This document shows, piece by piece, positions 31,042 to 48,070 of a stretch of 64,000 nt of DNA (the first letter of the stretch is position 1; each line of letters begins with the position of its first letter). Position numbers and translations under genes: made by a program. Source of the stretch: a virus (lineage: Duplodnaviria > Heunggongvirae > Uroviricota > Caudoviricetes); the IMG/VR virus record IMGVR_UViG_3300036768_001066, one strand, 5' to 3'. Under the pieces are notes generated by a model. It saw only the letters and a program-made list of their open reading frames with translations, was not told where the DNA came from and made no database searches.

Positions 31042-31054
31042 CGTTCATACATTT

Positions 31055-31145
31055 TGGTTGCCCCGGTGGGATTCGAACCCACGTTGGAAGTTACCTTCTC
31101 CGGATTAAGAGTCCGGTACTTTCGGCCAGCTAAGCGAACGGGGCA
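31055..31145 (-). tRNA. tRNA-like, anticodon CTT by loop CTCTTAA, long variable arm, CCA encoded
   Basis: Acceptor TGCCCCG/CGGGGCA, T-arm GTGGG TTCGAAT CCCAC, variable AGAAGGTAACTTCCAAC. Confidence 0.45.
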
Positions 31146-31157
31146 GTTTAAATTTTG

Positions 31158-31245
31158 TGCGCCCGGCAGGATTCGAACCTGCGATGGTGGTTACCCCACT
31201 CCACATTAAAAGTGTGGTGCTCTCGGCCAACTGAGCAACAGACGC
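31158..31245 (-). tRNA. tRNA-like, anticodon TTT, long variable arm (88 nt)
   Basis: D-arm GCTCAGTTGGCCGAGAGC, stem CCACA/TGTGG, loop CTTTTAA, variable AGTGGGGTAACCACCATC, T-arm GCAGG TTCGAAT CCTGC. Confidence 0.5.
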
Positions 31246-31269
31246 AAAATTTTACTTCGTTCTTATTTG

Positions 31270-31342
31270 TGCGCCCGTCTGGAGTCGAACCAGACCTGAA
31301 TGGTTAAAAGCCATTTGCCTACAACCGGTTTGCTACGAGCGC
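31270..31342 (-). tRNA. tRNA-Lys (anticodon TTT), 73 nt, weak D-stem
   Basis: Stem AATGG/CCATT, loop CTTTTAA, T-arm TCTGG TTCGACT CCAGA. Confidence 0.55.
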
Positions 31343-31491
31343 ATGATTGATGCCTCGCAGTCAGCAAGGCGTTACCGTTTATATTTTCGTTTCTGCTTCA
31401 TTTTCGTTTCTTAAATTTTTTGGCTCCCATGATTAACGACCTTTGGGTATTAGTATCCGAAACGGTCATGCGGATCTGCCATTATTTTTTG

Positions 31492-31573
31492 AGCCTGAGG
31501 AGGGATTCGAACCCCCGTTGTTTGAGTTCCTGCTTACAAGGCAGGCGCAGTCGACCACTGATGCCACTCAGGC
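31492..31573 (-). tRNA. tRNA-Thr (anticodon TGT) with extended 12-nt variable region
   Basis: Acceptor GCCTGAG/CTCAGGC, stem CCTGC/GCAGG, loop CTTGTAA. Confidence 0.55.
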
Positions 31574-31761
31574 AATTTACATTCTTCTCTTAATGCCCGT
31601 ATGCTCAAGATAAGTTGTTATCGAGAACTGTACAGACGGTTTAAATTTTCCGCCCATTATCTTGCAATAATAATCGGACATAGCGTTCAATTTATATTCG
31701 ACAGGTTTATCTATCTCGTATAGTTCGACCTGCCTCGTTTTTATCTCTCTTGTCTTCATCG

Positions 31762-31834
31762 AGCTACCGGCGGGGATCGAACCCGCGACCTCGTCCTTAC
31801 CAAGGACGTGTTCCACCGACTGAACTACAGCAGC
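31762..31834 (-). tRNA. tRNA-Thr (anticodon GGT)
   Basis: D-arm GTTCAGTCGGTGGAAC, stem CGTCC/GGACG, loop TTGGTAA, T-arm GCGGG TTCGATC CCCGC. Confidence 0.65.
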
Positions 31835-31924
31835 ATAATGAACAGGTGAAATATCGATGCAGTGTGAGATTCTGCTTCTTCTTTCATAGGACGATTGGCA
31901 TAACCCCAATCATCTTGTTCACTG

Positions 31925-31998
31925 AGCATGTAGTCGGGATCGAACCGACTCTGTTCCAGCTTGGAAGGCTGGCGCACCACCACTTATGCGTTACATGC
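31925..31998 (-). tRNA. tRNA-Gly (anticodon TCC)
   Basis: Acceptor GCATGTA/TACATGC, stem CCAGC/GCTGG, loop CTTCCAA. Confidence 0.6.
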
Positions 31999-32091
31999 AA
32001 AATACGTTCTCTCCACTTGCTACCTCCAACTGGTCCCAGGTTCAGCGGTTAAGAGTCAGGTACATCTCATAGTCACCCAGAGAGAACGTGG

Positions 32092-32178
32092 AGCGGGTAG
32101 TGAGATTCGAACTCACGATCTGACCTTATCTGACCAGCTTGGAAGGCTGGTGCGATGGACCAACTACGCGACACCCGC
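32092..32178 (-). tRNA. tRNA-like, anticodon TCC, long variable arm; anticodon arm identical to the canonical tRNA-Gly(TCC) next to it
   Basis: CCAGCCTTCCAAGCTGG followed by TCAGATAAGGTCAGATC, then T-arm GTGAG TTCGAAT CTCAC. Confidence 0.45.
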
Positions 32179-32264
32179 AAATATTTTAGACAGGGACTGA
32201 AGGGAATTTTCACCTTGGCTCCGGCGGCCTTTCGGTCTCACGATCTACATCAGTTTGTCCTTTG

Positions 32265-32336
32265 TAACGGAGGGCAGAATCGAACTGCCGGGGTCCAGGC
32301 TTATGAGACCAGAAGGTTACCAACAACCTCTCCGCA
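32265..32336 (-). tRNA. tRNA-like, probable anticodon CAT, irregular acceptor and anticodon stems
   Basis: T-arm GGCAG TTCGATT CTGCC; loop CTCATAA with a T-T mismatch in the stem. Confidence 0.35.
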
Positions 32337-32529
32337 ATGTTCAGCGGTTCTCCTGGACCCTATTACCAGGATTTACTTTGGATTGTCGAGTTCTAAATTT
32401 CTCAATAATGAACGACGACAACAGAACCACTTAATGTGGCGGACAAGTGAGATAATGACCTTGTGCGAGATTCGAGGTCCTCTCTCATTGGGTGATCGGT
32501 ATCGCAACCCCGACCATTCTTGTCCACTG

Positions 32530-32602
32530 AGCGGGGGACGGGATTCGAACCCGCGACCTTCACCTTGGCAAGGTGACGCTCTACCAACTGAGCTACTCCC
32601 GC
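32530..32602 (-). tRNA. tRNA-Gly (anticodon GCC)
   Basis: GCGGGAG TA GCTCAGTTGGTAGAGC, stem TCACC/GGTGA, loop TTGCCAA. Confidence 0.7.
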
Positions 32603-32716
32603 ATGAACACCGATTCCTGTCTTCCTCACTGCCTCGGTGTACCACAGCAGTGTCATTCCCTAATTGGAGCCGAGGGGCAGCCCGCCGGCTGTGCGTTCCC
32701 TTTCAACTCGGCATTT

Positions 32717-32797
32717 GTGCGGGAGGAGGACTCGAACCTCCGAGGCTTGCGCATAGGATCATGAGTCCTACCTGATACCATCTTCAGTCACCCCGCA
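32717..32797 (-). tRNA. tRNA-like, anticodon CAT, extended 12-nt variable region
   Basis: Stem TAGGA/TCCTA, loop CTCATGA, T-arm GGAGG TTCGAGT CCTCC. Confidence 0.45.
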
Positions 32798-35100: not shown

Positions 35101-35607
35101 TTAAAATAAAGGTTTTATGTTTGCCACTGGTTTGCCGAGCAGCTCCGGGTACTTGGAACCCCAGTACGCCCTCACGCCCATGAGTACTATGCCCAGGTTA
35201 TTTTCTCCTTTGCCATTGCACACACCCCAATAGGTATCGTTCCAGTGGTTTGTCTCCTCGAGGTGGCGCTTGCCAGTTGCAAGCAACTCACGACGCAATT
35301 CGATATTACGGTAGAACTTTTCGAACACGATGACGCTCATCACGTCGAACTTTATCCTGGACCAGTCATCGCGAATGGTTACGATCCTGCCGTTCTTCTT
35401 TGCTTCACCAGCCGTACAGTTCAGGAACATAGTCATTCTGGTGGGCTGGTCCTCTGTCTTAGCGGCCTGATATGCGTGTTCGCTCGACGGGTACTTGATG
35501 CCCTCGAAATAAACCGGTGTCATGAAGAAATTGGACAGGAACCTGTACTTCCCGTCGAAGCCCTTTACGTTATAGTCGTCGTGCACTATGTAGCTCTTGT
35601 CGATCAT
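35101..35607 (-). CDS. NADAR (YbiA/DUF1768) domain protein
   Basis: FLSNFF, SSEHAYQAAK, DTYWGVCNGKGENNLGIVLMGVR match the YbiA FSNF / SEHYFQAQK / DxYWG..GKG.N.LG..LM..R signature. Confidence 0.7.
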   Translation of the reverse strand: MIDKSYIVHDDYNVKGFDGKYRFLSNFFMTPVYFEGIKYPSSEHAYQAAKTEDQPTRMTMFLNCTAGEAKKNGRIVTIRDDWSRIKFDVMSVIVFEKFYRNIELRRELLATGKRHLEETNHWNDTYWGVCNGKGENNLGIVLMGVRAYWGSKYPELLGKPVANIKPLF

Positions 35608-35716
35608 CCTGTCCGTCTGTCCTCCTTAATTTTTATTGACATTTTCTTCTTCGGTTTTAAAGTTATTCCTCCTCCGCTTGGTCTCGTTGCCGTTGTCAAG
35701 AATAATCACATAGGCA

Positions 35717-36349
35717 TTATCGATCGGTCTCGTCGTACAACCGTATCTTCTCGGTTAACGCCGGGTTTGTCACGTCAACGACCCTGGTGTCCTTCGGAAG
35801 GATGACATGTTTCTTCTTCGGAGCCAACCCGAGGTCACCGTGTATTTCCGGCGCAAACTCCACGTGCTCATCCTTGCCGTGTTTCTCCACAGTGAAGCAG
35901 TCATCCACCGTTATCTCGTGGTAGAAGTCTGCCATCTCTATGAGGGCCGTCGATGCGCTGTGCCTGAATGCGGCAATCTCGGTCCTACAACCACGAGCGC
36001 TCAAATACTTGACGAGTTCCATGTAATCGGAATCACCCGATAGGATTATTATGGTGTCAACCTTGTCAACGAGCTGGACCGCCTCTATAGTTAGCGGCAC
36101 ATCTGCACTCTTGTAGCATGGCTTGACTATTCCGTAAAAATTCTTGTGTAATCTCTCGGCGAGCTTCTTCGAGATCTTCTTTCCCTCCCTGAGGTAGAAG
36201 AACTTTGACAGACTGCGCCTACCTATAAGACGCGGTATCAACCGGTCGTAATCCATCATCATGAACTCACCAAAGGTGTTAGCGCTCTTGTCCATGTTGT
36301 TGCCGTCCACCAGGACCGCAACAGTCTGCTGTATCTTTATTTCTTCCAT
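35717..36349 (-). CDS. NYN-domain (LabA-like, PIN-fold) putative RNase
   Basis: VAVLVDGNNM and IIILSGDSDY motifs. Confidence 0.6.
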   Translation of the reverse strand: MEEIKIQQTVAVLVDGNNMDKSANTFGEFMMMDYDRLIPRLIGRRSLSKFFYLREGKKISKKLAERLHKNFYGIVKPCYKSADVPLTIEAVQLVDKVDTIIILSGDSDYMELVKYLSARGCRTEIAAFRHSASTALIEMADFYHEITVDDCFTVEKHGKDEHVEFAPEIHGDLGLAPKKKHVILPKDTRVVDVTNPALTEKIRLYDETDR

Positions 36350-36409
36350 CGCTTACCTGTTAGTTTTTCTATTCAGGTAAGTATACTATTTTTTACGAGA
36401 TGAAAAACA

Positions 36410-36730
36410 TCAGGGCGCAATTCCTTCCTCGTAGCTGTACGTGTCCGGTCCGTCCTCCCCGTTCTTGCATTCGGCGACCCAATTGAGGTAACGCGAAGAA
36501 TCGCCGACGCGGAATCTGTACTCCTCTTGCCCGTTATCCCATTTTGCCAGGAATATGGTCACCGGAGAATCGTTGAGTATCCTCGCGACCTGGTCGAGGA
36601 CCCAGTCCTTGTGGTGCGCTCCGTCTATCCCGCCGTATTTCATGATGAACAGTAGGGCAAACTCAGCCTTGGCATAATCCTTGTATGGAGTGTCCTTCTG
36701 CTCCACAAGCGTCTCTCCTAAGTATTTCAT
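36410..36730 (-). CDS. Hypothetical protein (106 aa)
   Basis: ORF track. Confidence 0.45.
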   Translation of the reverse strand: MKYLGETLVEQKDTPYKDYAKAEFALLFIMKYGGIDGAHHKDWVLDQVARILNDSPVTIFLAKWDNGQEEYRFRVGDSSRYLNWVAECKNGEDGPDTYSYEEGIAP

Positions 36731-36758
36731 ATCTGAGTGGGGTGTATTGTCTGGTGAT

Positions 36759-37732
36759 TTAATTTCCTCGCATTGTACGTCTTAATGAGCCACGTGGCGA
36801 AACCGTTATCCTTGAGTAGCTTGGAATGTTTTTGCGCATGGGTTTTGGAGGGCGATCCATCATGATGGTATTGATCCAGTTTGGATTAACGGTGATGCCG
36901 TTCTGTTCCATGAGTTCAACGATAAAAGCCTTCCACTCTTTGTCGAGTTCATCTGCAGTCTTGCGGTATCGACCTCGTAAATGCTGTCCACCCACTTGTG
37001 GTAGTCCTCCCATTGCTCCCCGTTGTCTCCCTCTATCACAACTATAGTTCTCGATCTAACCAGCGGATCGAATCCACTGGAGTTGATGAGGATCTGACGG
37101 GTTGTGTTTAGTACCTGCCTGAGCGATATATTCGTGTTAATGCCCATCTTGTACCCGAGTAGCAGCAAGTGGAACTGCGCAACCCAGTCCTTGCCGAAAT
37201 CTTCTATGGGTATTGGATAATTGCGACGCCATTCGGCTTCCGCCTCTGGCGTCAGGTCGGGCGGAATCTGCGGGTCAGACTTATACTTATCGTAGATGCA
37301 TTTTGCCTCCTCGAGCTTGACCATCTGCGATTCATGAATTATTGCTGCTGCATCCTCGAACGATACCCACTTAAAGTCATCGACCTCCGGTTGCTGCACG
37401 CCCTTCGGGTTGGTGAACATGGACGTGCACTCGCATTTGATGTCATCACCGGATTCTTCGATGACCGCGAGGAACGGCACGAGGGTCTTCTTGCCGTTCA
37501 TAGATTTTGAGAAGTACGGAGAATTCTCGAGGAATATGACATCGAGAGGATCTATCCTTATCCCGGTCTCCTCCAGGGCTTCTCTACATGCAGCTTCTGG
37601 ATACGACTCACCGTCATCCGGCAGCCCCTTCGGAATGGACCACGTCCGTCCCTCCATCGGCTGGTTGGTGATGTGGCACACAAGAACCCGGTCTCTTGTG
37701 TCTATTATGAATATTCCGCAAGTATAAATCAT
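36759..37732 (-). CDS. Nudix hydrolase with apparent frameshift joining ORFs 36860..37732 and 36759..37013
   Basis: Nudix box GLPDDGESYPEAACREALEETGI; protein-like translation switches frame near 36990. Confidence 0.55.
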
Positions 37733-37929
37733 TTTATCAGGTCTGGCAGTAACGCGTATTTTTTATTCAGCATGGTACCGCGCATGTCGGATACCGTATA
37801 GAACTCGCCGTCGATTTCGTAGCTCCATCTGTCGAATTTAATCAGTTCCATCCTAACTGTGTCGATGTGAGGGCATTTATATTCCAATCCCTCACCCGGT
37901 GGAATGGACACTATTGACTCGAACTTCAC
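37729..37929 (-). CDS. Hypothetical protein (66 aa)
   Basis: ORF track. Confidence 0.4.
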   Translation of the reverse strand: MKFESIVSIPPGEGLEYKCPHIDTVRMELIKFDRWSYEIDGEFYTVSDMRGTMLNKKYALLPDLIK

Positions 37930-37960
37930 GTAGAACTCGCGCCGGCCATCTGACAGGTTC

Positions 37961-38233
37961 CTAACCGACAGTATCGCATGAACTATTGGGTACCGCTTCT
38001 CGTCGTCTTGGTTCGCCGACAGGTTCCGCCCTGCTGGCCGTGACTATGATTGGGAAATCGTCGTTGATGAATAAGAACACCCCTTCGCTGTCGAGCGACG
38101 ATAAGCTGTGACCCTTCAAGTCACGGCCGAAGCTTTCGATAGCCTCGTCCAATTTCTTCCTGCGCATTTCATCAGTCTCTTCGACCTTGATGTGTCTCAG
38201 GTTGCCTGGGTATGGGTTTATCTGGCATCGCAA
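37961..38233 (-). CDS. Hypothetical protein (90 aa)
   Basis: ORF track. Confidence 0.35.
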   Translation of the reverse strand: MRCQINPYPGNLRHIKVEETDEMRRKKLDEAIESFGRDLKGHSLSSLDSEGVFLFINDDFPIIVTASRAEPVGEPRRREAVPNSSCDTVG

Positions 38234-38305
38234 TCTTTATTGAAACAAAATCCCGGAACCTGCATAAAAAAATTATGGGTTGTTCCGGGTTTTGATTTAT
38301 TTAGG

Positions 38306-39994
38306 TTAGGCTGTTATCTCAACATCCATCTCGATTTCAGCGTTCTTACGAACCTGGTCGAACGTGTACTCCACAAGGATCTCTCCATCTCGGAATACCG
38401 GCACCAATACGTCCTCGTATTTGTCGAAATCTGGATCTGTTGACTGCACCGTCTTGAATGCTTCCCACGCCTGCATTCCAGGCTTTCTTTCGGCACGAAC
38501 AAGTTTACAGTATCCAGTTTTTGATTTCTTAACCGCATCGGTCACAGGGTTCTTCTCGATGTTCACGCCGACTCCGTTGATAATTACATGCGTAGCCTTG
38601 ATAGCGTACTTCTGCTCGTCGCGGTCGTGTGCCTGTAGATATTTTCCACCGGAACCGAACACCAGATTCATGATGTCGATTTTCACGGAGATCATACGTT
38701 CGTAAAGTAGGGACATCAATTTGTAATTCACACCATCTCCTTGGAGCACACCGATCTGAGGGTGGAATACTCTGAAACCTTTCGAGTTTGTGGTGAATCC
38801 AAAGTGGTCGAACAGGATATTGAAAATTCCTTTATCCACGAGGCTCTGCGCTTCGACAATGTCAATGTCCATGTGTTTAGACACCTTCATCACAACTTGC
38901 GACACGTAGTGCGGGTCCACCTTTGAATCGTTGAACAATCCGAATAGAACCATCTCGGCATCTCCGGAATCAGGACGTACGACAATCTTGATAGGGATAC
39001 CATGATTATTGGTCCATCCGATGAACTCGTCTTTAAGGCCAGGAAGGATTCTGTGACACACGTTATAGATATTCTTGGTATCCGATACGAGAGATAAGAT
39101 GATCACCCCACTTGCAGGGTTGGCATTTAGCACCAATGGGTCGGTCTTGACCTTGTTGATGATGGTGCGGTATCCCTCAGGATCGCTCGCATCGCCATCG
39201 TATGAACAATGCACTGAGTGTTCCGACGCGATAACAGAGAAACCGGCCATTGGACAACCGTAGTACTTCTCGGCAAGAACACAAGCACCTAATGTGTCGG
39301 TTCCTTTGAACGAGATAAGCGCCGCGGTACCAAGGATGCGAGCGGACTCTTCCGAGCTAACTCCACGGTATCCGAAGTCGTGGTGCATGAAGTCGATCAG
39401 CCACTGTGGCGCGTCGGACGACAATGCGTGATACTTAACGATAAGTTCCTTCACCAGGCGAGCGTACGTCGCGACAGTGTTAGGCGCCCACAATTTCATC
39501 AACGTGGTTTCGCTGATGTTGGTGAGTGGTGAGCACTTCTTATCTGTATTGCGGATAGTCATGATGATGTTCTTCACCGCAACCGGAGTACCTTCCGGAA
39601 CTGCCTTGATCTCGAGAGGTAATCTTCCTCCGTGATTCTCCCAGATGTGGTACCACATCTTGTCGTTAAAACAGTCGAAGCCGAAGTGTGCGATGTTCTT
39701 CTTACGAGCTTCCTCGATTTTTGCTGGGGTAATGCGAACACCGGCAAAGTATTTTTTCAGATAGTACTGCAATAAGCAAAGGATAGTGTAAGGCATATCC
39801 CCGCCGCGCGACTCAAGACCCGAATAGGTCTCCTCGATTCCATCAGGTACGAGAAGGTGGTGCGTCATTTTGTAACTGTCCGACATGATGATGAAATTGT
39901 CTTCATCTTGTAAATTTTGGATGATGGCTACGAGCTCTGTCACACTCATGTTTTGCAGCTCGGCATCCGTGTAATCGCCATGATGTTTCTTCAT
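38306..39994 (-). CDS. nadV: Nicotinamide phosphoribosyltransferase (NAMPT)
   Basis: DSYKMTHH, LPLEIKAVPEG, HDFGYRGVSS, FKGTDT, VRPDSG, LQGDGV, VFGSGG align with the eukaryotic and KVP40 NAMPT signature. Confidence 0.9.
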   Translation of the reverse strand: MKKHHGDYTDAELQNMSVTELVAIIQNLQDEDNFIIMSDSYKMTHHLLVPDGIEETYSGLESRGGDMPYTILCLLQYYLKKYFAGVRITPAKIEEARKKNIAHFGFDCFNDKMWYHIWENHGGRLPLEIKAVPEGTPVAVKNIIMTIRNTDKKCSPLTNISETTLMKLWAPNTVATYARLVKELIVKYHALSSDAPQWLIDFMHHDFGYRGVSSEESARILGTAALISFKGTDTLGACVLAEKYYGCPMAGFSVIASEHSVHCSYDGDASDPEGYRTIINKVKTDPLVLNANPASGVIILSLVSDTKNIYNVCHRILPGLKDEFIGWTNNHGIPIKIVVRPDSGDAEMVLFGLFNDSKVDPHYVSQVVMKVSKHMDIDIVEAQSLVDKGIFNILFDHFGFTTNSKGFRVFHPQIGVLQGDGVNYKLMSLLYERMISVKIDIMNLVFGSGGKYLQAHDRDEQKYAIKATHVIINGVGVNIEKNPVTDAVKKSKTGYCKLVRAERKPGMQAWEAFKTVQSTDPDFDKYEDVLVPVFRDGEILVEYTFDQVRKNAEIEMDVEITA

Positions 39995-40017
39995 TTTGGT
40001 TTTTATTTAGGTTTATA

Positions 40018-40638
40018 TTATTGATTTTGGTCTACCAACTCTTTGAACATAGCGAACAGAGGCGCGTGTGTAGGGTTGATCTTAAACTCAGGCGAGTAAA
40101 GTTCCTTAACGTCGAACCACTTTGTCACCGCCACGTCATCGAATCCTTGTCCAGCCTCTCCGTCCTTATGGATGGCATAAAAGAATGATGTTATGATTCC
40201 GTGTGGTGTATCCCTGTACCTCGGGTCGTCGATGTTGGAAGATCCGATGTAGTTCATTTCGAACACGTCCATGCCGGTCTCCTCCTTGACCTCACGTGCA
40301 CCAGCTTCCTCCGCACTCTTGTCGGTCGGGTCGATGAATCCACCAGGGAATCTCCAGATGCCGAGCGATACCTCGTGTGGTTTCTGGATGAGCAATACGT
40401 GTGTTATATTGTGGTCGTGGTCCGTCTTAACCACTGCGACATCCACGGTGTGGAATGCAATGGGGTACCGCACCGTGTATTCGGTTGTTTTTTTCTGGAA
40501 CAGCAATTGCTCGATCTCTGTTGCGGCGCTTGCGGCATCCATAGCATCACCCTCGACGTTTTTTCGAGGTATCTTGTTAACAACCTCGTGGATCTGTTTC
40601 CAAATCTGGCTTCTTTCAATTTCGGTGGTTTGTTCCAT
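40018..40638 (-). CDS. Nudix hydrolase (ADP-ribose / NAD-related pyrophosphatase family)
   Basis: Nudix box GGFIDPTDKSAEEAGAREVKEETG. Confidence 0.7.
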   Translation of the reverse strand: MEQTTEIERSQIWKQIHEVVNKIPRKNVEGDAMDAASAATEIEQLLFQKKTTEYTVRYPIAFHTVDVAVVKTDHDHNITHVLLIQKPHEVSLGIWRFPGGFIDPTDKSAEEAGAREVKEETGMDVFEMNYIGSSNIDDPRYRDTPHGIITSFFYAIHKDGEAGQGFDDVAVTKWFDVKELYSPEFKINPTHAPLFAMFKELVDQNQ

Positions 40639-40916
40639 TATTTCCTTTTATTTAGTTCGTCTCTTATTGCCGCGGCCAGTTCGTAGTCCTCATCTCTCAC
40701 TGCCTTGTCGAGTAAATCTTCCAGATCTGTTGTCTCGTCGTAGGACTTCAACTTGAAAGCCGCCGGTTTTTGCTCGTGTGATTTTAATAAAGTTTTTGCA
40801 CTCGCTCTCGGCTCGAACCTCTGCCTGCTCCGATAGGCGTCTCTCCGTAACGACAGATAGAAGCCTATTCCCAATGCCAAGAACGCCAAAGCTGTTATCA
40901 CTATAGTTATAGACAT
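40638..40916 (-). CDS. Small membrane protein with C-terminal UVR-like motif
   Basis: N-terminal TM helix; DEDYELAAAIRDELNKRK. Confidence 0.4.
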   Translation of the reverse strand: MSITIVITALAFLALGIGFYLSLRRDAYRSRQRFEPRASAKTLLKSHEQKPAAFKLKSYDETTDLEDLLDKAVRDEDYELAAAIRDELNKRK

Positions 40917-40928
40917 GCGCGTAATACA

Positions 40929-41240
40929 TCACTTCTTATATTTGTCCCTCAGAACCTCGGGTATGTGTTCGACAGCGCCGGCCCTCACCTGCGTGGAACT
41001 GACGTTGCTGTGCTCTATGCTTCTCACCTCAATGTGCGACATCACCGATTCGAGCTGCGTCAGTACATAGGGTATCTCGAACCCGTCCCTCTTCACAACA
41101 AAAAGTTTCACATTGTCGAAGTCCTTGTCGAACGTCTCCACCTCCCTGTGATACGGGTGATTAGGCGTTCCGTCGTCCTTCAGTACCGGGTACGAGCTCT
41201 GGAATATACGCACAAGCGTATCTACGCCAACCGCGAACAC
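40929..41240 (-). CDS. Hypothetical protein (103 aa)
   Basis: ORF track. Confidence 0.45.
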   Translation of the reverse strand: MFAVGVDTLVRIFQSSYPVLKDDGTPNHPYHREVETFDKDFDNVKLFVVKRDGFEIPYVLTQLESVMSHIEVRSIEHSNVSSTQVRAGAVEHIPEVLRDKYKK

Positions 41241-41272
41241 GATGGGTTGGCTGAACTTCTGACGAAGGTACT

Positions 41273-42112
41273 TTATGTGAAAAATCCACTGCGTGATACG
41301 ACCACATCGTAGCCGAGCTTGTTGAGGTCTTCTATTCTGCTCTTGAGCTCCTGTGAAGACAGCGTGCCCTTGCCGTATATCTCGGCACTTATCATGAGTT
41401 TTGGCTTGCTGTTGTATTCGGATTTAACAGCCTCTGCTATTTCCACGTGCCCGTTGTGTATAGGGTTGAAGCTTCCCTTGAATAACAGGATGGACCTCTC
41501 CTCCCTGAAAAAATCCTCCAGACGGTAGAACTTGCCGTCTCTGATGCACAGGAAGTCGTCTTGTCTCGTGTGTCTCACCATGTCGAACATTTCGGCCTGA
41601 TTGTCATCGAATCCGTCGACGATGTCCACGCACGCACCGGTCGGAACGTATTCGTTCCTGGCGGCTATGATGAGCAGACCGCACAGTGCTATCCTCTCGA
41701 GGTACTGCTTTCTTGTGAGGCTCTCGTGTATTGATATATGGTAGTATCTCGTCTTCGACTTGTATGCGTACGCGATCCAGCCGTGTGTCGACTTGCCGTC
41801 TCCACCAAGTTGGAATGATGCGATGTAAGCGGCATTCACGCCGTTGAGACCGATCATATCCTTCCATCTCCACTCCAAAATTTTAGACACGCTCTCTTTG
41901 GACACCGCCCTGGTTCCTTCGTTATGGTAGTTGTCGTGCTGGTACTCGCGAGAATATGGACACTCGGACACGTAAACTGTCGCGGTCGCACCGGCAATGC
42001 TCATCAGTGCGTTGACTACGGCAACGCCGCATCCCATCTCCACGAAGCACCCGTAAATGTCGCTGAGGTGAATGTCTTCGGCGAGCTTATCTATTTGCTT
42101 TGATATTTCCAT
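41273..42112 (-). CDS. NMN adenylyltransferase-like nucleotidyltransferase with N-terminal CinA-like(?) domain
   Basis: C-terminal LLFKGSFNPIHNGHVEIAEAV has the GxFxPxHxxH cytidylyltransferase/NMNAT motif. Confidence 0.5.
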   Translation of the reverse strand: MEISKQIDKLAEDIHLSDIYGCFVEMGCGVAVVNALMSIAGATATVYVSECPYSREYQHDNYHNEGTRAVSKESVSKILEWRWKDMIGLNGVNAAYIASFQLGGDGKSTHGWIAYAYKSKTRYYHISIHESLTRKQYLERIALCGLLIIAARNEYVPTGACVDIVDGFDDNQAEMFDMVRHTRQDDFLCIRDGKFYRLEDFFREERSILLFKGSFNPIHNGHVEIAEAVKSEYNSKPKLMISAEIYGKGTLSSQELKSRIEDLNKLGYDVVVSRSGFFT

Positions 42113-42245
42113 AGTTCAAACTGTCTTGTGTGACCTTTGTCATGTGTCGTTTCTCGTTATTGCGCGAGCACCGTCACGATGTCCGCAATCATGAAGCCCA
42201 CCAATAATATGGCGATGAACAAAAGTATTGGTCCTATTCTGAATC

Positions 42246-43523
42246 TCATTTATCTCTCACTACCCTGTCACATTGCTGCAGCAGTTGGTTAAACTTTATA
42301 GCTTCGCGGCGTCTCTGCTCTTCGCCCATCTCCGGTCCTTCCTTCATACCTTCATCTAACAAAGATTGTCCGGTCACACTGAGTTTGTAAACGCTAAGTG
42401 CCAACGCGTTCGCATTACGGCGCTTCTCCTCTTTGGACATTACCCAATGTAAAAACACGGTAAGATCCGCGTCCGCCAGCTCGAGGCGTTCTCTGCGTTT
42501 AGCTATCGTAAACGCGAACGTATGAAGCTCGTCGGTAGCATGCTCAACATACTTGGCAGCATCGAGCAATAGCTCCACACCGTCCACAAACTTATTCGGT
42601 AATTTTATCTCCTCCTTCAGTTTACGGGTGAGCATCTGTCGGCTTGTATCAGATGCGTGGAACAGCGAAGCTACAAGTACCTCCGGAGTTCTTGTGTTAA
42701 TCCATTGCTCCGGATAGTAATACCCGGGCATGACTTGATAGAGTAGACCATATTCCTGCAACAATGTGAAGTACATCAACGGTGAGTTGAGTTGTTCGAA
42801 CGCCTTGAACATTTCTTCATTTATGCGCTCGCGAACAATAGGCACTGTATTACCATCTTTGTCTGGTCCTTCGAGTACCCGGCATTTCATAATGGCTTCG
42901 GCGGTATCCTCGTGTATCTTCATACCAAAGCGAAGCGCAAATCTGATGGCTCTCAGCACGCGCAATCTATCCTCGTTGAACCGGTCCACCGGGTTGCCTA
43001 CACAGCGCAATACTCTGTTCTCTACGTCTTCAACGCCGCCAACAAGGTCGATTATCTCGCACTTGTCGAGGTCGTAAAACAAAGCATTGATGGTGAAGTC
43101 GCGCCGCAGCACGTTCTCTTCGATTGTTGCGCCGAGCCTTACCTCTGGTTGACGCCCGACGGAGACGTCCTCGCGGAAAGTCGCTATCTCGTATCCCTTT
43201 GGACAGTCCTTGGTATAAACTCGTATCACCCCGAAACTCTTGCCCGTGTAATCCAAGCGGTAGTTGTCTTTGAGAAGTTCGGATATTTTTTCTGGCATGG
43301 CGTCTGTGGCCATGTCGTAGTCCTTGATGTTGGACCCGAGCAGGTGGTCACGGACACATCCCCCAACAACAAAGAGCTGGTGACCAGCGGCAGTCATAAT
43401 TTGGTGGATGTCCTTGATGTCCTGTGGAATATTCATAATGTAAAGATACGAATTTTTTATTGATATTGAACCCAGGAGATGCCTGTATCTCTCGATTAGC
43501 TCTTGCTCTTTATCTACATTCAA
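42246..43523 (-). CDS. cca: tRNA nucleotidyltransferase (CCA-adding enzyme)
   Basis: LFVVGGCVRDHLLG ... DYDMAT ... EIATFRED ... RRDFTINAL polymerase-beta head-domain motifs. Confidence 0.8.
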   Translation of the reverse strand: MNVDKEQELIERYRHLLGSISIKNSYLYIMNIPQDIKDIHQIMTAAGHQLFVVGGCVRDHLLGSNIKDYDMATDAMPEKISELLKDNYRLDYTGKSFGVIRVYTKDCPKGYEIATFREDVSVGRQPEVRLGATIEENVLRRDFTINALFYDLDKCEIIDLVGGVEDVENRVLRCVGNPVDRFNEDRLRVLRAIRFALRFGMKIHEDTAEAIMKCRVLEGPDKDGNTVPIVRERINEEMFKAFEQLNSPLMYFTLLQEYGLLYQVMPGYYYPEQWINTRTPEVLVASLFHASDTSRQMLTRKLKEEIKLPNKFVDGVELLLDAAKYVEHATDELHTFAFTIAKRRERLELADADLTVFLHWVMSKEEKRRNANALALSVYKLSVTGQSLLDEGMKEGPEMGEEQRRREAIKFNQLLQQCDRVVRDK

Positions 43524-43532
43524 ATATAAATG

Positions 43533-43560
43533 AAAAGGGGACCCAAAATCGGGTCCCTTT
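43533..43560 (-). terminator. Rho-independent terminator after lipoprotein gene
   Basis: AAAGGGACCC-GATTTT-GGGTCCCCTTTTCATTT on minus strand. Confidence 0.6.
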
Positions 43561-43581
43561 CCTCAGTGAGGATTTCGTCAA

Positions 43582-43752
43582 TTACTTGACGGTGTCACAT
43601 GCAGTGCTGTCTGCACAGCAAGTTGGTGCTACGCAAGCTGTGGTGTCGACCACGCCGGCAGTGCTGTCTGTGGTCGATGGAGCCTCTTCCGCTCCTCCGC
43701 TGCACGAGGCAAACCCTAATGCAATTGCGGCTACGATGATAAATTTCTTCAT
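43582..43752 (-). CDS. Small secreted lipoprotein (56 aa)
   Basis: MKKFIIVAAIALGFASC signal peptide and lipobox; Cys/Thr-rich mature part; terminator hairpin after stop. Confidence 0.45.
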   Translation of the reverse strand: MKKFIIVAAIALGFASCSGGAEEAPSTTDSTAGVVDTTACVAPTCCADSTACDTVK

Positions 43753-43931
43753 TGGTTAGTTGTGTTTTTATTTCAACATATTTATCCGTAAATGGGTGGA
43801 AAGTTGCGGCCTTTTACAAATTTTATTTGTATGTGTGACAGCCGGTTCGGGCCGTTTACCTGACGGAAAAATACGGCATGCCACCACATGGTTGGATAAT
43901 CCTCGCCTTCGTTGAAGACCGGTTAGCTCCA

Positions 43932-45215
43932 TTAGTCTCGTATTTCTACCAGGTACTGAATCGTGCTCTGGTTGGTGTTGTAGACAATGTATTCGTTATT
44001 GCGGAGGTCAGCGCCGCCCTTGGCGAACACAGAGTCGTATCCGTCACGCTTCATCTTAGCTTCATCGAGAGAGCTGTGCTCGGATTTCCAGTTAAGGATC
44101 TCCTTCTGCTTGCCCTGGTGGATTTCGTAAAGCGCAAGGATGGCAGTTTTGGAACCGCCTCGTGCCCAATACGAGCCGCTCAGAGATGTGTATCCGATAG
44201 ACTTCTGCGCCTTGTCTGCGAAGTACACACCGTAGCCGAACATCGAACCGGTAAGCACCGCGTTTGACGGACGGATCTTCAGCCCCTGCTGGAAAATGCT
44301 CCACCAGTTCTCGTTACGTGAGCCGTGCCACAACAGCGCAGTTTTCTTGTTTTTCGCTTTCTTAAGGAAGTTGTCGTACCCGGCTTGCGTTTGGTTGTTA
44401 ACCGCCCGGAAGGCGCGTACAAATTGTTTCGCGTTAGGGCCAAGCATCCTTTTGATCATTTCGATTTCCGCGGGACGACAGTTCATGAGCTCCAATCCAA
44501 GAGTGTGCAACAGATCGTGTTCCTTCTGCTCCGGCGTCGCGTCTTTCTCCTTCACGTTCATGGCAACCTGACCGGCCATGGCATCGAGGGCATCTTGCTC
44601 AACAAGGAGGATTTGATTCATATACTCCTGCAGTTGTTTTTTGTCCTTAATACTTGTTCCTTCGGGTAGCAAGTGGTCCTGCACCTTCTTCATCTTTCTC
44701 GGGATGATCTGGTAGAGCTCGATAAGTTTCTCGTTGATTTCGTCCGCCTTGTTGCCGACCTTGAATAATCCGGTGATAGCATCGAGTACCTGCTGCGCGT
44801 GATCAACCTGTGCCTTTGTAACTTTAGACGCAGACACTGTATAGTTGGCCTCAACCGATTGGTTGGCGAACTTCATCAGCATCTCCACGAATTTCTTGAC
44901 CTCGGCACTGCGGTCCTTGTTGAATATGGACTTGGTCGTGCCGGCGCTCTCGTTAACGGATTCCTCCGCATACAGGTGGGTCACATCCGTGTACGGCTTG
45001 GGTTTCTTGCTCGCCTTCGTTTTGTCGCGGTAGATGCTGTCCCAGTCGCTCATTGGGTAGTTCTTGCGTGTCTCGGTAGAGTCTACGCGCCCCCAGTGTG
45101 CCTCGAACTCATCGGGCGAGATCTGAGTCATGTTGTAAAACTTGTTGTTGTTCGCTCCGGTCACGCAGATTAAGCGTACGACCTTGAATCCTTTTTCGGT
45201 AGTAACTGCTGCCAT
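43932..45215 (-). CDS. WGR-domain poly(ADP-ribose) polymerase-like protein
   Basis: N-terminal WGRVDS; C-terminal LLWHGSRNENWWSIFQQGL ... GSMFGYGVYFAD ... NNEYIVYN matches the PARP catalytic signature including the catalytic Glu. Confidence 0.8.
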   Translation of the reverse strand: MAAVTTEKGFKVVRLICVTGANNNKFYNMTQISPDEFEAHWGRVDSTETRKNYPMSDWDSIYRDKTKASKKPKPYTDVTHLYAEESVNESAGTTKSIFNKDRSAEVKKFVEMLMKFANQSVEANYTVSASKVTKAQVDHAQQVLDAITGLFKVGNKADEINEKLIELYQIIPRKMKKVQDHLLPEGTSIKDKKQLQEYMNQILLVEQDALDAMAGQVAMNVKEKDATPEQKEHDLLHTLGLELMNCRPAEIEMIKRMLGPNAKQFVRAFRAVNNQTQAGYDNFLKKAKNKKTALLWHGSRNENWWSIFQQGLKIRPSNAVLTGSMFGYGVYFADKAQKSIGYTSLSGSYWARGGSKTAILALYEIHQGKQKEILNWKSEHSSLDEAKMKRDGYDSVFAKGGADLRNNEYIVYNTNQSTIQYLVEIRD

Positions 45216-45220
45216 GATAT

Positions 45221-45766
45221 TTAAGCGTTGATTGCGTTTACGATGTCCTGAACCGTCTTGCAGTCCTTGATGTCTTTACCGAACACCTGACCGATGGTCG
45301 AGTAGTCACGGTCGATGAACCCGAGGTCCTCCTGAAGGTTCGAGTTCTTGTTGATAGCCTGCTTGTAGATTCCGAGCTTGCTCGCGATGGCCGTGATTAC
45401 GTCCTCGAGTGCTTTGTCCGCGCTTGCCGGGTTGGCCGTGACGATGACATTGGTTGTATCTCCTGAGTCATTGCTGTCATCTGTGGTAGCGGGAGCCGGG
45501 ATTGACCAGGTGTTGTATGTACCGTTCCATGTGCGGTCCCAATTTTCCTCGCTCGCGATGGTGCTCATCGTTTGGCTAACCTCGTTTTGCGATACCCAGA
45601 AATCCTTAGCGCGTAAGTAATTTTTGATGTCAAGGTTTGTTGTTGTTCCGTTCTGCTTCATCAGTTCGATGGCAGCGTCTTTGATGTCCTGCTTGCTCGC
45701 AGTTTTTTGAGTTGTTTGAGTTGTTGTCATATTGCTTGCTTTGATATTCGTACCTTTCGCCTCCAC
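45221..45766 (-). CDS. Hypothetical protein (181 aa)
   Basis: ORF track. Confidence 0.5.
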   Translation of the reverse strand: MEAKGTNIKASNMTTTQTTQKTASKQDIKDAAIELMKQNGTTTNLDIKNYLRAKDFWVSQNEVSQTMSTIASEENWDRTWNGTYNTWSIPAPATTDDSNDSGDTTNVIVTANPASADKALEDVITAIASKLGIYKQAINKNSNLQEDLGFIDRDYSTIGQVFGKDIKDCKTVQDIVNAINA

Positions 45767-45773: not shown

Positions 45774-46463
45774 TTAAAATTGATAGTTTTTAGTCGGTTT
45801 TCTGAACTTCAATTGGCCGGCACTGTTGTTGCGTTCTGTGACGCCATTCTCGAGTATAGCGTCGAGACGCTTGAGGACAAGACCTTCCATCATGTCAATT
45901 TTTACAAGGTCCTTCCATAACGGCTCGAAGCAGTTGAAGAATGTCTTCACCCTGAACGCATTCTCGACGTTTGTGTTATACATGAACTTCATCGTGTCAA
46001 CTCCGTCAGGGGTTAGCACCATGTCGTCCTTGCCGTAGAGGCGGTCCAATAACTCGATGCGCTCCCTGAACGTTGTGCCTATTAGCTGGAACCCATCGTA
46101 AACGATGATGTCGAATATGACGAACTTGTCGTTCCACACTTTGTCCATGTGGTTGCGTTTGGACTTCGCCATGTACTCGCCTACGAGGACCATCCATTTG
46201 TTTGTCTGCGCGCCCTTCACGTCAGATACGGTCTCGCGATGCAGTTTGGTCAGGTCGATCTTGCACTTGGTGAACTTCTCTTTGTGGCGGTTCCACACGT
46301 GCGACTCGATGCCGTTGGTGAATAACAGGGTACAATCGCCATCGAGCTTAGGCTGAGCGCCGTACTCCTCGGTATCGTATTCCTTTAGTCGCCCGAAATC
46401 GAGTGCGTTCTCGGGTCTCGGCGGATAAATGTATCTGAACTTGTTGTATGGTATCCTGATCAT
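45774..46463 (-). CDS. Small ATP-dependent polynucleotide ligase (nucleotidyltransferase superfamily)
   Basis: Motif I PKLDGDC (KxDG), motif IV EGLVLKRLD, motif V LKFRKPTK. Confidence 0.55.
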   Translation of the reverse strand: MIRIPYNKFRYIYPPRPENALDFGRLKEYDTEEYGAQPKLDGDCTLLFTNGIESHVWNRHKEKFTKCKIDLTKLHRETVSDVKGAQTNKWMVLVGEYMAKSKRNHMDKVWNDKFVIFDIIVYDGFQLIGTTFRERIELLDRLYGKDDMVLTPDGVDTMKFMYNTNVENAFRVKTFFNCFEPLWKDLVKIDMMEGLVLKRLDAILENGVTERNNSAGQLKFRKPTKNYQF

Positions 46464-46502: not shown

Positions 46503-47138
46503 TTATTTGTCTCCGCGAACTTTGATTTGAGTTGTAGGAACGATCTCGCTGAACAATGTCTCAGGAGTTGTGTTGTTGTCGGCAGCGATTTTTGTTAAGT
46601 TCTCGATGGTACCCTTGGCAACCTTGAAGCTTGTGCGTTTTGTGAACATGCTCAATTTTACTTCATCAGGGATAGACTTGATTTTCATGATGGCCTCGGA
46701 AATCTCCTCGGCATATTTTTCGATAGCCTCGTTGTTGATGATGAATTCGTCAGCAGTCTCAACGATGTCCTCGCCGTAAGTTTCTTTAAGGTATGTTGCG
46801 CGATCCTCGTCAATTTTTTTGTATGAGTCCATAACGATGTAAAGAACTCCGTTATTTTGGTTGGCCATGATGAATGACCCAGGACGCTTGTTGCTTTTCT
46901 TGTATTCGTTCATCCACTCGGTCTGAGCAGCAGGTTTAAGGATGCTCTCAGCTTTGGCCTGCATAGCTTTACCGGCCTTCTCCATCTCGCGACCCTTAAC
47001 AAGGTCATCAATTGCGTTTACTACTTCGGGCTCAGTAACCGTAACCATCTTTTTGTCTTCATTAGACTTGGCGGTAACTTCGGTTTTAGCTGTAGCGAAC
47101 AAGTTTGTTTTCGGAGTGGTTGATTTCTTTGTTGACAT
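46503..47138 (-). CDS. Hypothetical protein (211 aa)
   Basis: ORF track; terminator hairpin after stop. Confidence 0.5.
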   Translation of the reverse strand: MSTKKSTTPKTNLFATAKTEVTAKSNEDKKMVTVTEPEVVNAIDDLVKGREMEKAGKAMQAKAESILKPAAQTEWMNEYKKSNKRPGSFIMANQNNGVLYIVMDSYKKIDEDRATYLKETYGEDIVETADEFIINNEAIEKYAEEISEAIMKIKSIPDEVKLSMFTKRTSFKVAKGTIENLTKIAADNNTTPETLFSEIVPTTQIKVRGDK

Positions 47139-47371: not shown

Positions 47372-48070
47372 ATGTTAGAGGACAACAGACTTTTGCCCTT
47401 CATATTCACCTTCCTGCCCGCGCTCGTCTACGCTGCGATGATATATTTCAGCGCGCCGTACCAGACTATAGGTAGGAGGATGTCTCAGTTGTATTTCCAG
47501 ATGGGCATGATCTCCGCCACAATAACCGGGTGGTTCCTGTGGATATTTCCGGAGTGGCAAACTACTCCCCTGTCGTCGCAGCCGATGAATGCGATGCTTG
47601 CGCTCGCATTCTTCCAGATAGCGGTGCTCGAGGAGGGCATGAAATTTTTCATGTTCAAGGCAACCGAGCAGTATAGGATAAAGCACGCACACCCGTGTGC
47701 GATAATGTTTTACGGGATGTGCATATCCGCTGGGTTTGCCGTGATGGAAAATGTAATGTACCTGCAAATGTATGGGAACGACGTGTTGCTCGTCCGTGCG
47801 TTCTCTGCGATAGTGCTGCACGTAGTCACTGGATTGATGATGGGGTACTTCATCGCATTGTCAAAGATGGATAGTACATTGAACTACCTTTACCAGATAC
47901 TCGCAATGCTGGTGCCCGTATTCTTACACGGCCTGTATGATTTCAACGTGATGGCACCGAGCGCCGGTTTACCGGGTCACCCGATATGGATGGTGCTCGG
48001 ACCTGGCGTTCTCGTTACGCTCGTTATGTGGTGGCAGCTTGTCCGATTTAACGGGCAGCGTGTGGGGTAA
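47372..48070 (+). CDS. PrsW-like intramembrane metalloprotease (polytopic)
   Basis: VLEEGMKFF (EExxK), FSAIVLHVV and FLHGLYDF (HxxxD) in a multi-TM protein; the only clear plus-strand gene in this region. Confidence 0.5.
   Translation: MLEDNRLLPFIFTFLPALVYAAMIYFSAPYQTIGRRMSQLYFQMGMISATITGWFLWIFPEWQTTPLSSQPMNAMLALAFFQIAVLEEGMKFFMFKATEQYRIKHAHPCAIMFYGMCISAGFAVMENVMYLQMYGNDVLLVRAFSAIVLHVVTGLMMGYFIALSKMDSTLNYLYQILAMLVPVFLHGLYDFNVMAPSAGLPGHPIWMVLGPGVLVTLVMWWQLVRFNGQRVG

Follow-up and report, generated by a model that had tools for sequence, protein, structure and literature searches.

Why should a virus of bacteria encode a PARP, or poly(ADP-ribose) polymerase, and with which proteins would such an enzyme work? 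Eukaryotes have PARPs as central players in the DNA damage response, and it has been proposed that these enzymes descend from phage PARPs. The question is raised by a stretch of 64,000 nucleotides from IMGVR_UViG_3300036768_001066, a Caudoviricetes record in IMG/VR, which is called the window here; the span under study is 35101 to 45215. According to the original prediction, made from the letters alone, the phage may carry an undescribed module of writers and an eraser of ADP-ribosylation, comprising a PARP, a second ADP-ribosyltransferase (ART), and a NADAR protein next to NAD+ salvage genes and serving in host takeover or anti-defense, for example against DarTG. The three open reading frames (ORFs; 43932 to 45215, 21680 to 22429, and 35101 to 35607, all on the minus strand) were found with the motifs that had been quoted, but a different unit emerged around the PARP.

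A complete WGR-HD-ART enzyme

The ORF at 43932 to 45215 (minus strand; 427 amino acids [aa]) encodes a PARP of the clade-1 (PARP1/2/3) type, with a WGR domain, a helical regulatory domain (HD), and an ART domain, as identified by Pfam, phmmer against the Protein Data Bank (PDB; PARP2 and PARP1), a family profile, and AlphaFold (AF2)/Foldseek. The motifs LLWHGSR, MFGYGVYFAD, and NNEYIVY were read in the sequence, and they align to LLWHGSR, GKGIYFAD, and NEYIVY of PARP2. Pfam detected the PARP catalytic domain (E value, 4.4e-26) and, weakly, PARP_reg (1.3e-3), while the WGR match of the window PARP alone was subthreshold (0.049). The WGR call was accepted despite this score because of the evidence from homologues, the family profile, the model, and the fold matches. 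Among 37 full-length aligned homologues, Pfam WGR matched 13 (best, 2.7e-11) and PARP_reg matched 9 (up to 2.7e-8). A 45-member family profile aligned with PARP1/PARP2 chains continuously from the WGR through the helical domain to the ART (E value, 2e-28). The AF2 model (predicted local distance difference test score, 87.4; predicted template modeling score, 0.81) has helices at residues 104 to 225, and its best PDB matches in Foldseek were DNA-break-bound PARP1/PARP2 WGR-HD-ART chains, aligned over the full length.

Seven residues (H297, G298, Y331, K338, S339, Y342, and E408) were invariant in 45 homologues, as were G42 and R43 of the WGR motif. Clade-1 membership is indicated by the H-Y-E triad, the nicotinamide-site Ser/Tyr/Lys, the HD, and the WGR, all of which are present. 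The window PARP is a complete WGR-HD-ART enzyme with its NAD-site residues all intact, and its architecture is that of PARP2, PARP3, and bacterial PARPs. The prediction of a WGR-PARP with a full catalytic signature was borne out by Pfam, the profile, the model, and the invariant residues; the family assignments held, and no loss of NAD-binding residues was seen.

The PARPs of Herpetosiphon aurantiacus and Clostridioides difficile are DNA dependent and make poly(ADP-ribose) in vitro (PMC5966428, PMC8120803), and it is for bacterial relatives only that DNA-break-dependent activation and poly(ADP-ribose) synthesis have been demonstrated (PMC5966428). PARP genes of Cellulophaga phage phi4:1 and Aeromonas phage Aeh1 appeared in a list published in 2014 (PMC4245714). 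Phage PARPs, also called PARTs, came up again in 2021 and 2022, when jumbo phages and viral NAD+ systems were surveyed (PMC7824862, PMC9503650); one of these surveys cites the XacN1 PARP that was also retrieved here. In our searches, 4986 proteins fell within the family at an E value of ≤1e-10 among 8000 candidates scored, and the full break-sensing architecture was strictly conserved across the PARP family seen on 257 viral contigs.

The source phage is a huge T4-like myovirus, because the window carries a T4-type gene set (portal and large terminase, plus tail sheath, clamp loader, thymidylate synthase, and 20 tRNA genes), a 374-kb contig carries a protein 99% identical to the upstream neighbor of the PARP, and the closest deposited PARP (42% identity) is found in a 462-kb uncultured phage. 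When the 10-kb span was compared at the nucleotide level with 50,697 phage records, there were zero matches and hence no close cultured relative. The window represents about one sixth of the genome, and negative results on its genes cover the approximately 60 ORFs scanned. Every gene of the studied span lies on the minus strand, with short spacers. The T4 late-promoter motif TATAAATA was absent from 33 to 48 kb of the window, and sigma-70-like sites were not enriched.

The partner protein and the ligase

Eighty-eight PARP loci with ±10 kb of flanking sequence were compared, 80 from IMG/VR (257 contigs matched) and 8 from other sources. They comprise 73 distinct PARP sequences, the denominator of all neighbor counts. 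A family was counted when iterated profile searches seeded with window proteins found it within 10 kb of the PARP; individual loci are cited by an L number.

Only 5 nt upstream of the PARP gene lies the gene for a 181-aa protein (45221 to 45766, minus strand), called the partner here. Its N-terminal domain of about 68 aa has the predicted topology helix-strand-helix-helix-strand-strand, that of a winged helix, and weak sequence matches to DUF2551, the ArgR DNA-binding domain, and Crp HTH. A degenerate acyl carrier protein (ACP) fold follows. In the window protein, Asp has taken the position of the phosphopantetheine Ser (EDLGFIDRD); a true DSL site is retained in one relative (PP-binding match, 7e-12). 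The N-terminal domain occurred within 10 kb of the PARP in 18 of the 73 loci, and in 10 of these 18 it was on the same strand and less than 500 bp away. The domain is found before the PARP in some loci and after it in others; it adjoins even the PARP of Cellulophaga phage phi4:1, which is 33% identical. The reverse look-up, a context-blind database retrieval, placed all three partner-family members on the same strand as a PARP and 0.15 to 1 kb downstream of it, with a WGR domain called in two of the three PARPs; this look-up is biased, since its profile was built from PARP-adjacent members and favors that subfamily. The link between the PARP and the partner is solid.

An exhaustive search gave 322 representative clusters of the partner N-terminal domain at an E value of ≤1e-3. 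The proteins are mostly 80 to 300 aa long with the domain at the N terminus, and the PHROGs entry for the family has no assigned function. No description of a PARP paired with a winged-helix-type partner was found in the literature searched. Many of the PARP-associated winged-helix-type proteins (L013, L010, L040, L057, L004, L007, and others) share a C-terminal domain of about 60 aa, DW..V…TR.QA+.AY…VR, in place of which the window partner has its ACP-like domain; the family is therefore modular.

The next gene upstream, 7 nt from that of the partner, encodes a putative minimal ATP-dependent ligase of 229 aa (45774 to 46463, minus strand). It consists of the nucleotidyltransferase domain and stops right after motif V, so that there is no OB domain. 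The protein carries a KLDG motif and matches Pfam DNA_ligase_A_M (9.1e-8; 32.5 bits against a threshold of 26.2) as well as NCBIfam domains of non-homologous end joining and ATP-dependent ligases (about 1e-6). Orthologues of this mini-ligase adjoin the PARP in L005, L008, and L088. PADLOC matched neither the PARP nor the partner nor the ligase.

On the coding strand, the best two terminator-like hairpins stand at either end of these genes. One (46497-46481; 7-bp stem, 6 GC pairs, T-rich tail) lies just upstream of the ligase start, and the other (43557-43538; 8-bp stem, 6 GC pairs, T-rich tail) follows the PARP and a 56-aa ORF and precedes the CCA-enzyme gene. Because of the 5- to 7-nt spacing and the two flanking hairpins, the PARP looks like part of a three-gene cassette (ligase, partner, and PARP) that is distinct from the block running from the CCA enzyme to the NADAR. 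Cassette membership is uncertain for the 56-aa ORF directly after the PARP (43582 to 43752, minus strand), which has a lipoprotein-type signal (…LGFASC…) and a Cys-rich tail. The first 87 loci gave no tblastn match to it; in L088, an ORF likewise of 56 aa was called downstream of the PARP.

Upstream of the ligase, a conserved 211-aa protein (46503 to 47138, minus strand) recurs 1.3 to 3.1 kb upstream of the PARP in L005, L006, L008, and L088. It was considered as a candidate for the missing eraser and rejected, with zero matches in Pfam, PHROG, PADLOC, and the PDB. Farther upstream, a PrsW-family intramembrane protease (47372 to 48070) is encoded on the opposite (plus) strand; it is also found near the PARP in L005 and L088.

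Single-sequence tblastn with the window neighbors missed most ligases at PARP loci, and a Cellulophaga phage ligase was used as the second seed. This seed revealed a T4-type DNA ligase (about 465 aa) no farther than 10 kb from the PARP at 37 of the 73 loci, usually 2 to 4.5 kb upstream on the same strand. The mini-ligase adds 3 loci, which brings an ATP-dependent DNA ligase to 40/73, well above a rough chance expectation. In L027, an Rnl1-like RNA ligase, a DNA ligase, and an RNA-ligase-like gene all lie ahead of the PARP. In phage T4 (record positions 123454-128765; L089), the gene order is 30.3 (NADAR), 30.2, 30.1, 30 (DNA ligase), alt.1, and alt (ADP-ribosyltransferase). Since the ligase-bearing loci are not independent and the T4 gene order offers inherited synteny as an explanation, the PARP-ligase link is only suggestive. 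The PARP keeps company with a specific small partner and, in many loci, with a ligase, which makes a concrete three-protein system. This cassette is the part of the locus that the literature leaves unexplained, and it is directly testable. Neither the conserved neighbors of the PARP nor the NMNAT frameshift described below had been noticed in the original prediction.

NAD+ genes, the NADAR, and the second ART

The block downstream of the cassette, all on the minus strand, opens with a tRNA nucleotidyltransferase of the CCA-adding/poly(A) polymerase family (42246 to 43523; Pfam PolyA_pol, 1.7e-32). NCBIfam matches to CCA tRNA nucleotidyltransferase (6.8e-50) and the PcnB subfamily (3.8e-50) were both under the curated cutoffs. 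An NMNAT-type adenylyltransferase with an extra N-terminal domain follows (40929 to 42112; GSFNPIHNGH motif, Pfam CTP_transf_like). It is split into ORFs 41273 to 42112 and 40929 to 41240, the second of which carries an SSTQVR motif; NadD-type NCBIfam matches were weak. Alignment with L088, in which this region is 93% identical in DNA and forms a single intact ORF of 396 aa, traced the split to a 7-bp deletion (AACACCA) near 41279 that leaves 279 plus 103 residues. The split is either a real mutation making a pseudogene or an assembly error. The intact L088 orthologue had no PDB or PHROG match, and about 200 residues at its N terminus were unmatched; a likeness of this part to CinA/PncC was an impression that no tool backed, and it was dropped.

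Next come a 92-aa protein with a UvrB/UvrC (UVR) motif (40638 to 40916; Pfam UVR, 1.8e-8), at the same position in L007 and L088, and a 206-aa NadM-Nudix-like hydrolase (40018 to 40638; Pfam NUDIX, 3.7e-17; best PDB match, 2qjo, a bifunctional NMNAT/Nudix). The latter is closest to the ADP-ribose pyrophosphatase domain of bifunctional NadM-Nudix enzymes, the same family being matched in NCBIfam with all scores under the cutoffs. The nicotinamide phosphoribosyltransferase (NAMPT/NadV type; 38306 to 39994; Pfam NAMPT_N and NAPRTase) scored 422.6 bits against a cutoff of 405 for NCBIfam PRK09198. It matched solved NAMPTs at 8e-87 and a second group of solved chains named NAMPT, putatively Namat, at 1e-53 to 5e-49. 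A second Nudix hydrolase of 290 aa (36860 to 37732; Pfam NUDIX, 2.1e-16; phrog_1185 nudix hydrolase) and a predicted NYN-domain (LabA-like) nuclease (35717 to 36349; Pfam NYN, 8.8e-21), which follows NAMPT in L007 and L088 as well, lead to the NADAR gene. The adjoining NAD+ salvage genes named beforehand are thus real, in the form of NAMPT, an NMNAT-motif nucleotidyltransferase, and two Nudix proteins. No PRPS-like (Adps) gene was detected among the roughly 60 ORFs scanned, in a window that is about one sixth of the genome.

The NADAR (35101 to 35607, minus strand) is a predicted YbiA-type N-glycosidase/ADP-ribosyl hydrolase. Its NADAR/YbiA identity was confirmed by Pfam (1.3e-22) and by PDB YbiA 2b3w (6.6e-16), and E43, K50, and E118 stand at the catalytic positions in an alignment with YbiA and P. 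nicotianae; the roles of these residues have been described (PMC11543638). Homologues were found in 485 phage records. The match to T4 gp30.3 (AdfN) spans 51 residues only, at 27% identity (pairwise E value, 8e-4); as judged from the sequence, the window NADAR is YbiA-like and outside the T4-type AdfN cluster. NADARs hydrolyze guanine-linked (N-glycosidic) ADP-ribose (PMC11543638, PMC11125620), and T4 gp30.3 and unrelated phage NADARs neutralize DarTG1 (PMC11257639). Of medium and jumbo phages, about 48% carry NADAR domains, often with NadV/NadM genes alongside (PMC9503650).

The second PARP-like ART (21680 to 22429, minus strand; 249 aa) was assigned by Pfam to ART-PolyVal (PF18760; 8.9e-17, 62.6 bits against a cutoff of 31.2), with the motifs VYHGT, GRGFYFT, and SEIVVWD; partial homologues were found in 205 phage records. 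Its gene is two genes from that of the large terminase (TerL), an APS kinase gene alone lying between them. About 44% of phage ARTs occur in contexts suggesting head packaging, including near terminase/portal genes (PMC9503650). Both this protein and the NADAR match the PADLOC candidate system PDC-M42, the ART-PolyVal weakly in component A (4e-4) and the NADAR in component C (2e-9). This is the only hint of a writer/eraser relation between the two, which are 13 kb apart.

The conservation of these genes around the PARP differs from that of the partner. A NADAR was found within 10 kb of the PARP in 1/73 distinct loci, namely L088, the relative that is 97 to 98% identical; the co-occurrence across related phages that had been proposed as a check was thus limited to this one relative, and the pairing of NADAR and PARP is not a conserved unit. 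NYN and NMNAT were each found in 2/73 loci, NAMPT in 3/73, the CCA enzyme in 7/73, RNA ligase in 8/73, and Nudix in 17/73. That proximity of the CCA enzyme or RNA ligase is meaningful by itself was rejected, 7 to 8 of 73 being near a rough chance expectation by our own estimate. L088 retains the entire order from ligase through NADAR. L007, a 482-kb phage with a PARP 51% identical, retains the partner and has the PARP followed, in the order of the window, by the CCA enzyme, the NMNAT, the UVR-motif protein, the Nudix, NAMPT, and NYN, and phi4:1 has the order CCA enzyme, PARP, partner, and ligase.

In five of the six lineages with ≥50% PARP identity, a gene for NAMPT, a PRPS-like protein, or NadE lies within 10 kb of the PARP. 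The NAD+ genes near the PARP differ by lineage (L005 12054-15520, L006 1489-2487, L091 3602-4411, L011, L073, and L074): in some a PRPS-like gene is joined by a short gene resembling NAPRTase, possibly a NARP1-like pair, in others the PRPS-like gene stands by itself, and in others there is NadE. PRPS-like genes lie near the PARP in the sister lineages L005 and L006, and in L091 a NadE gene follows the PARP and partner pair. This recurrence hints, modestly, at selection for keeping an NAD+ supply close by.

Every component of the region belongs to a family already reported in phages. The label "undescribed" therefore does not apply to phage PARPs, to phage NADARs that neutralize DarT1, to the combination of NAMPT and NMNAT known as NARP2, or to terminase-linked ARTs, all of which have been published.

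Several other window genes were recorded. The gene between terminase and ART-PolyVal encodes an APS (adenylylsulfate) kinase (20837 to 21415; Pfam, 6.5e-66), an unusual auxiliary metabolic gene in this position. The large terminase extends over two ORFs, 19796 to 20806 and 15979 to 19809, with a 14-nt overlap; the latter contains LAGLIDADG homing-endonuclease and Hint/intein domains and a second Terminase_6N match, so that the gene looks invaded by one or more inteins. Among the tRNAs at 30701 to 32797, types normally without a long variable arm are oversized (Lys, 86 to 91 nt; Gly, 87 to 90 nt; Thr, 82 to 83 nt; Met, 81 to 84 nt) as called by both ARAGORN and Rfam, which suggests insertions or introns. 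An RNA-repair/translation-rescue set by the tRNA array includes a 2H phosphoesterase (23362 to 23856; weak Acb1-like match), an RNA ligase with a PHA02142 OB domain (27113 to 28192), and an RF-1/ArfB-like protein (28432 to 28848). A TnsA-like endonuclease domain protein (60405 to 60914) and a DUF932 protein (24842 to 25723) are encoded on the minus strand.

Possible roles and known systems

Our best explanation, to which we give an even chance, is that a break-sensing PARP forms a cassette with its partner and the ligase, and that a separable cluster for NAD+ rebuilding and ADP-ribose clean-up lies downstream. From the family identities, intact active sites, gene order, and conserved partner observed above, we infer the activities, targets, and timing as follows. 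By analogy with PARP1/2/3 and the Herpetosiphon and Clostridioides difficile PARPs, the WGR domain would bind a DNA break, and this binding would free the autoinhibitory helical domain, whereupon the H-Y-E site would use NAD+ to ADP-ribosylate the PARP itself and nearby partners. The adjacent winged-helix/ACP-like protein would be the likeliest partner or target, and the ligase would seal the break, i.e., work on the same lesions. The CCA enzyme, NMNAT, UVR protein, NadM-type Nudix, NAMPT, second Nudix, NYN, and NADAR would together make a NARP2-like rebuilding and ADP-ribose clean-up set, the published roles of these families being to restore NAD+ after host NADase defenses and to strip guanine-linked ADP-ribose. 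The same cluster may also supply the phage's own NAD+ consumers. The ART-PolyVal, beside terminase, would be made with the head-packaging genes and delivered early, which fits the published pattern.

A stronger form of this explanation is possible but rather doubtful. The ligase, partner, and WGR-PARP may constitute a phage-borne DNA-break signaling system that senses nicks or ends, whether of the phage genome or of DNA under attack, ADP-ribosylates the partner or DNA ends, and directs sealing or shields the ends, fed by the NAD+ cluster. If so, no PARP-dependent damage-response pathway would have been described from a bacterial virus before it, and it would include a partner family of at least 322 sequence clusters with no assigned function.

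Several points weigh against the break-sensing cassette with its downstream cluster. The winged-helix assignment of the partner has predicted topology and weak sequence matches as its sole basis. The mini-ligase, a putative DNA or RNA ligase, is without an OB domain and matches ligase profiles weakly. Terminator-like sites across the region were not enriched compared with shuffles, and the NMNAT gene is frameshifted in the window copy. Proximity of the NAD+ cluster to the PARP is confined to the lineage of the window itself (NAMPT, 3/73; NMNAT, 2/73; NADAR, 1/73). The ligase-bearing loci are dominated by one clade, and the proximity of ligase, ART, and NADAR may be old, inherited T4-type architecture, with the PARP in the place of Alt, rather than functional coupling. 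No PARG, macrodomain, or ARH eraser was detected among the window ORFs scanned, and no experimental or biochemical work on any phage PARP was found in the literature searched.

The T4-type gene order leads directly to the main rival, which is possible though on the doubtful side: the PARP, whose gene follows that of the ligase as alt does in T4, would be a host-takeover effector replacing T4 Alt and modifying host proteins such as RNA polymerase or nucleoid proteins, perhaps triggered by breaks during host DNA degradation, and the ligase would be near by inherited synteny. The order from 30.3 through 30.2, 30.1, and ligase gene 30 to alt.1 and alt, the T4-like portal, terminase, and clamp loader of the window phage, and the largest clade, with its ligase 2 to 4.5 kb upstream of the PARP on the same strand, all speak for it, as does a published suggestion that phage PARPs act on host proteins like other phage ARTs (PMC7824862). 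However, the WGR and HD break-sensing parts, needless for a constitutive effector, are strictly conserved, the mini-ligase of the window is not a gp30 orthologue, and the tight reciprocal linkage with the winged-helix-type partner is left unexplained. The same linkage bears on the view that there is no functional coupling at all and that an accessory-gene island of independent auxiliary genes shares its neighbors by descent, in which case the region would be a routine collection of known phage auxiliary genes. We consider this unlikely. Early accessory genes do cluster in large phages (PMC7824862), one strand with short spacers serves all genes across 64 kb, and associations other than that with the partner are mostly confined to single clades. 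Yet PARP and partner are still adjacent where PARP identity has fallen to 33%, and either gene order occurs, the reverse look-up gives a PARP in three of three cases, and NAMPT, PRPS-like, and NadE genes recur near the PARP in different lineages.

The module of the original prediction, in which PARP, ART-PolyVal, and NADAR are one writer/eraser system, is decidedly unlikely; in it, the NADAR would undo ADP-ribosylation made by the phage itself or else remove marks of the DarT type, with the ARTs directed at the host. Its NADAR does retain the catalytic E43, K50, and E118, but it lies 8 kb and a terminator-like hairpin from the PARP, 13 kb from the ART-PolyVal, and near a PARP in just one of the 73 loci. 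The chemistry is also mismatched, as guanine N-glycosidic ADP-ribose is to our knowledge not a product of clade-1 PARPs. All tested NADAR subfamilies, including YbiA, hydrolyze guanine-ADP-ribose in vitro, and a YbiA-type NADAR is the antitoxin to the H-Y-E ART YarT in the YarT-YbiA toxin-antitoxin pair (PMC11125620), a precedent to which the PDC-M42 matches may be added. Diverse phage NADARs neutralize DarTG1 (PMC11257639), but in one study E. coli YbiA and the T4 NADAR gave no protection from DarT1 in cells (PMC11125620), and the resemblance of the window NADAR to AdfN is limited to the short match given above. Company with NAD+ salvage genes is, moreover, a known phage pattern for NADARs (PMC9503650). 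The anti-DarTG idea is already established for other phage NADARs. An anti-defense role is plausible for part of the region, and NADAR alone acting on DarT1-type marks is more plausible than the integrated module, while the YbiA-like character of the protein, outside the AdfN cluster, speaks against the specific anti-DarTG claim. Highly unlikely, finally, is a role of the PARP in RNA/DNA end healing, in which it would modify terminal phosphates of nucleic acids together with the CCA enzyme, RNA ligases, 2H phosphoesterase, and tRNA genes, and Nudix and NADAR would process ADP-ribose by-products. Terminal phosphates are ADP-ribosylated by KptA/Tpt1 and, in vitro, by PARP2 and PARP3. The window has the RNA ligase, RF-1/ArfB-like protein, 2H phosphoesterase, CCA enzyme, and 20 tRNA genes that such a role would use, the three ligase-type genes ahead of the PARP in L027 and the CCA enzyme-PARP-partner-ligase order of phi4:1 fit it, and NAD+-dependent ARTs in phage RNA repair have been discussed (PMC9503650). 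However, the frequencies of the CCA enzyme (7/73) and RNA ligase (8/73) are about those of chance for ±10 kb in genomes of 100 to 400 kb (a rough figure of our own rather than a computed one), sensing of DNA breaks is what WGR domains are known for, the KptA-type H-H-h signature is absent, and the RNA-repair genes of the window are 15 to 20 kb distant.

Compared with head-packaging ARTs (ART-PolyVal in polyvalent proteins; T4 Alt), the window ART-PolyVal is likewise an H-Y-E type ART two genes from terminase, in the context given for about 44% of phage ARTs (PMC9503650). It differs in being a stand-alone protein of 249 aa with a large insert and no MuF/polyvalent fusion and in the APS kinase gene between it and the terminase gene. 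The NADAR shares with phage NADARs (T4 gp30.3 AdfN, Bas32, and Bas60) and E. coli YbiA the fold, the conserved Glu/Lys (E43 and K50), and the YbiA-type Glu (E118), and it is a stand-alone gene beside NAD+ salvage genes, as described in PMC9503650. It is only remotely like T4 AdfN, its closest solved relative is YbiA, which did not protect cells from DarT1 (PMC11125620), and its substrate is putative.

NARP2, which consists of NAMPT and NMNAT, counters NAD+-depleting defenses (bioRxiv 10.1101/2024.02.11.579819). Like NARP2 of Vibrio phage KVP40 (NadV and NatV), the window cluster has a NAMPT, probably of the true NAMPT type, a gene with the NMNAT motif, and a NadM-type Nudix. In contrast, its NMNAT and Nudix are separate genes, the NMNAT has about 200 aa of extra N-terminal domain and is frameshifted, and the cluster adds the UVR-motif protein, second Nudix, NYN, NADAR, and CCA enzyme. 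It would be one more lineage that combines NAD+ rebuilding with ADP-ribose removal, both known counter-defenses.

With the clade-1 PARPs (human PARP2/PARP3; H. aurantiacus; C. difficile CD160), the window PARP shares the domain order WGR, helical regulatory, and ART, the H-Y-E triad with the nicotinamide-site Lys, Ser, and Tyr, and full-length profile and fold matches. It is similar in size to the bacterial enzymes, which are DNA dependent and poly-ADP-ribosylating (PMC5966428). Unlike these relatives, it is phage encoded and without zinc fingers, a BRCT domain, or an N-terminal tail; identity to the human PARPs is about 20 to 25%, its locus has no detected PARG, ARH3, or macrodomain nearby, and its conserved winged-helix-type neighbor does not figure in eukaryotic or bacterial descriptions. 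The annotated phage PARPs are the closest comparison. The window lineage differs from them in its mini-ligase, its neighbor order, and the NAD+ salvage cluster downstream, and XacN1 and FBKp34 have other neighbors around the PARP than the window. Nevertheless, Cellulophaga phi4:1 gp031, Xanthomonas XacN1 ORF414, and Klebsiella FBKp34 gp111 all have the same architecture, at 25 to 33% identity over 95% of the length, and phi4:1 shares the CCA-family enzyme, the winged-helix-type protein, and a DNA ligase as neighbors of its PARP.

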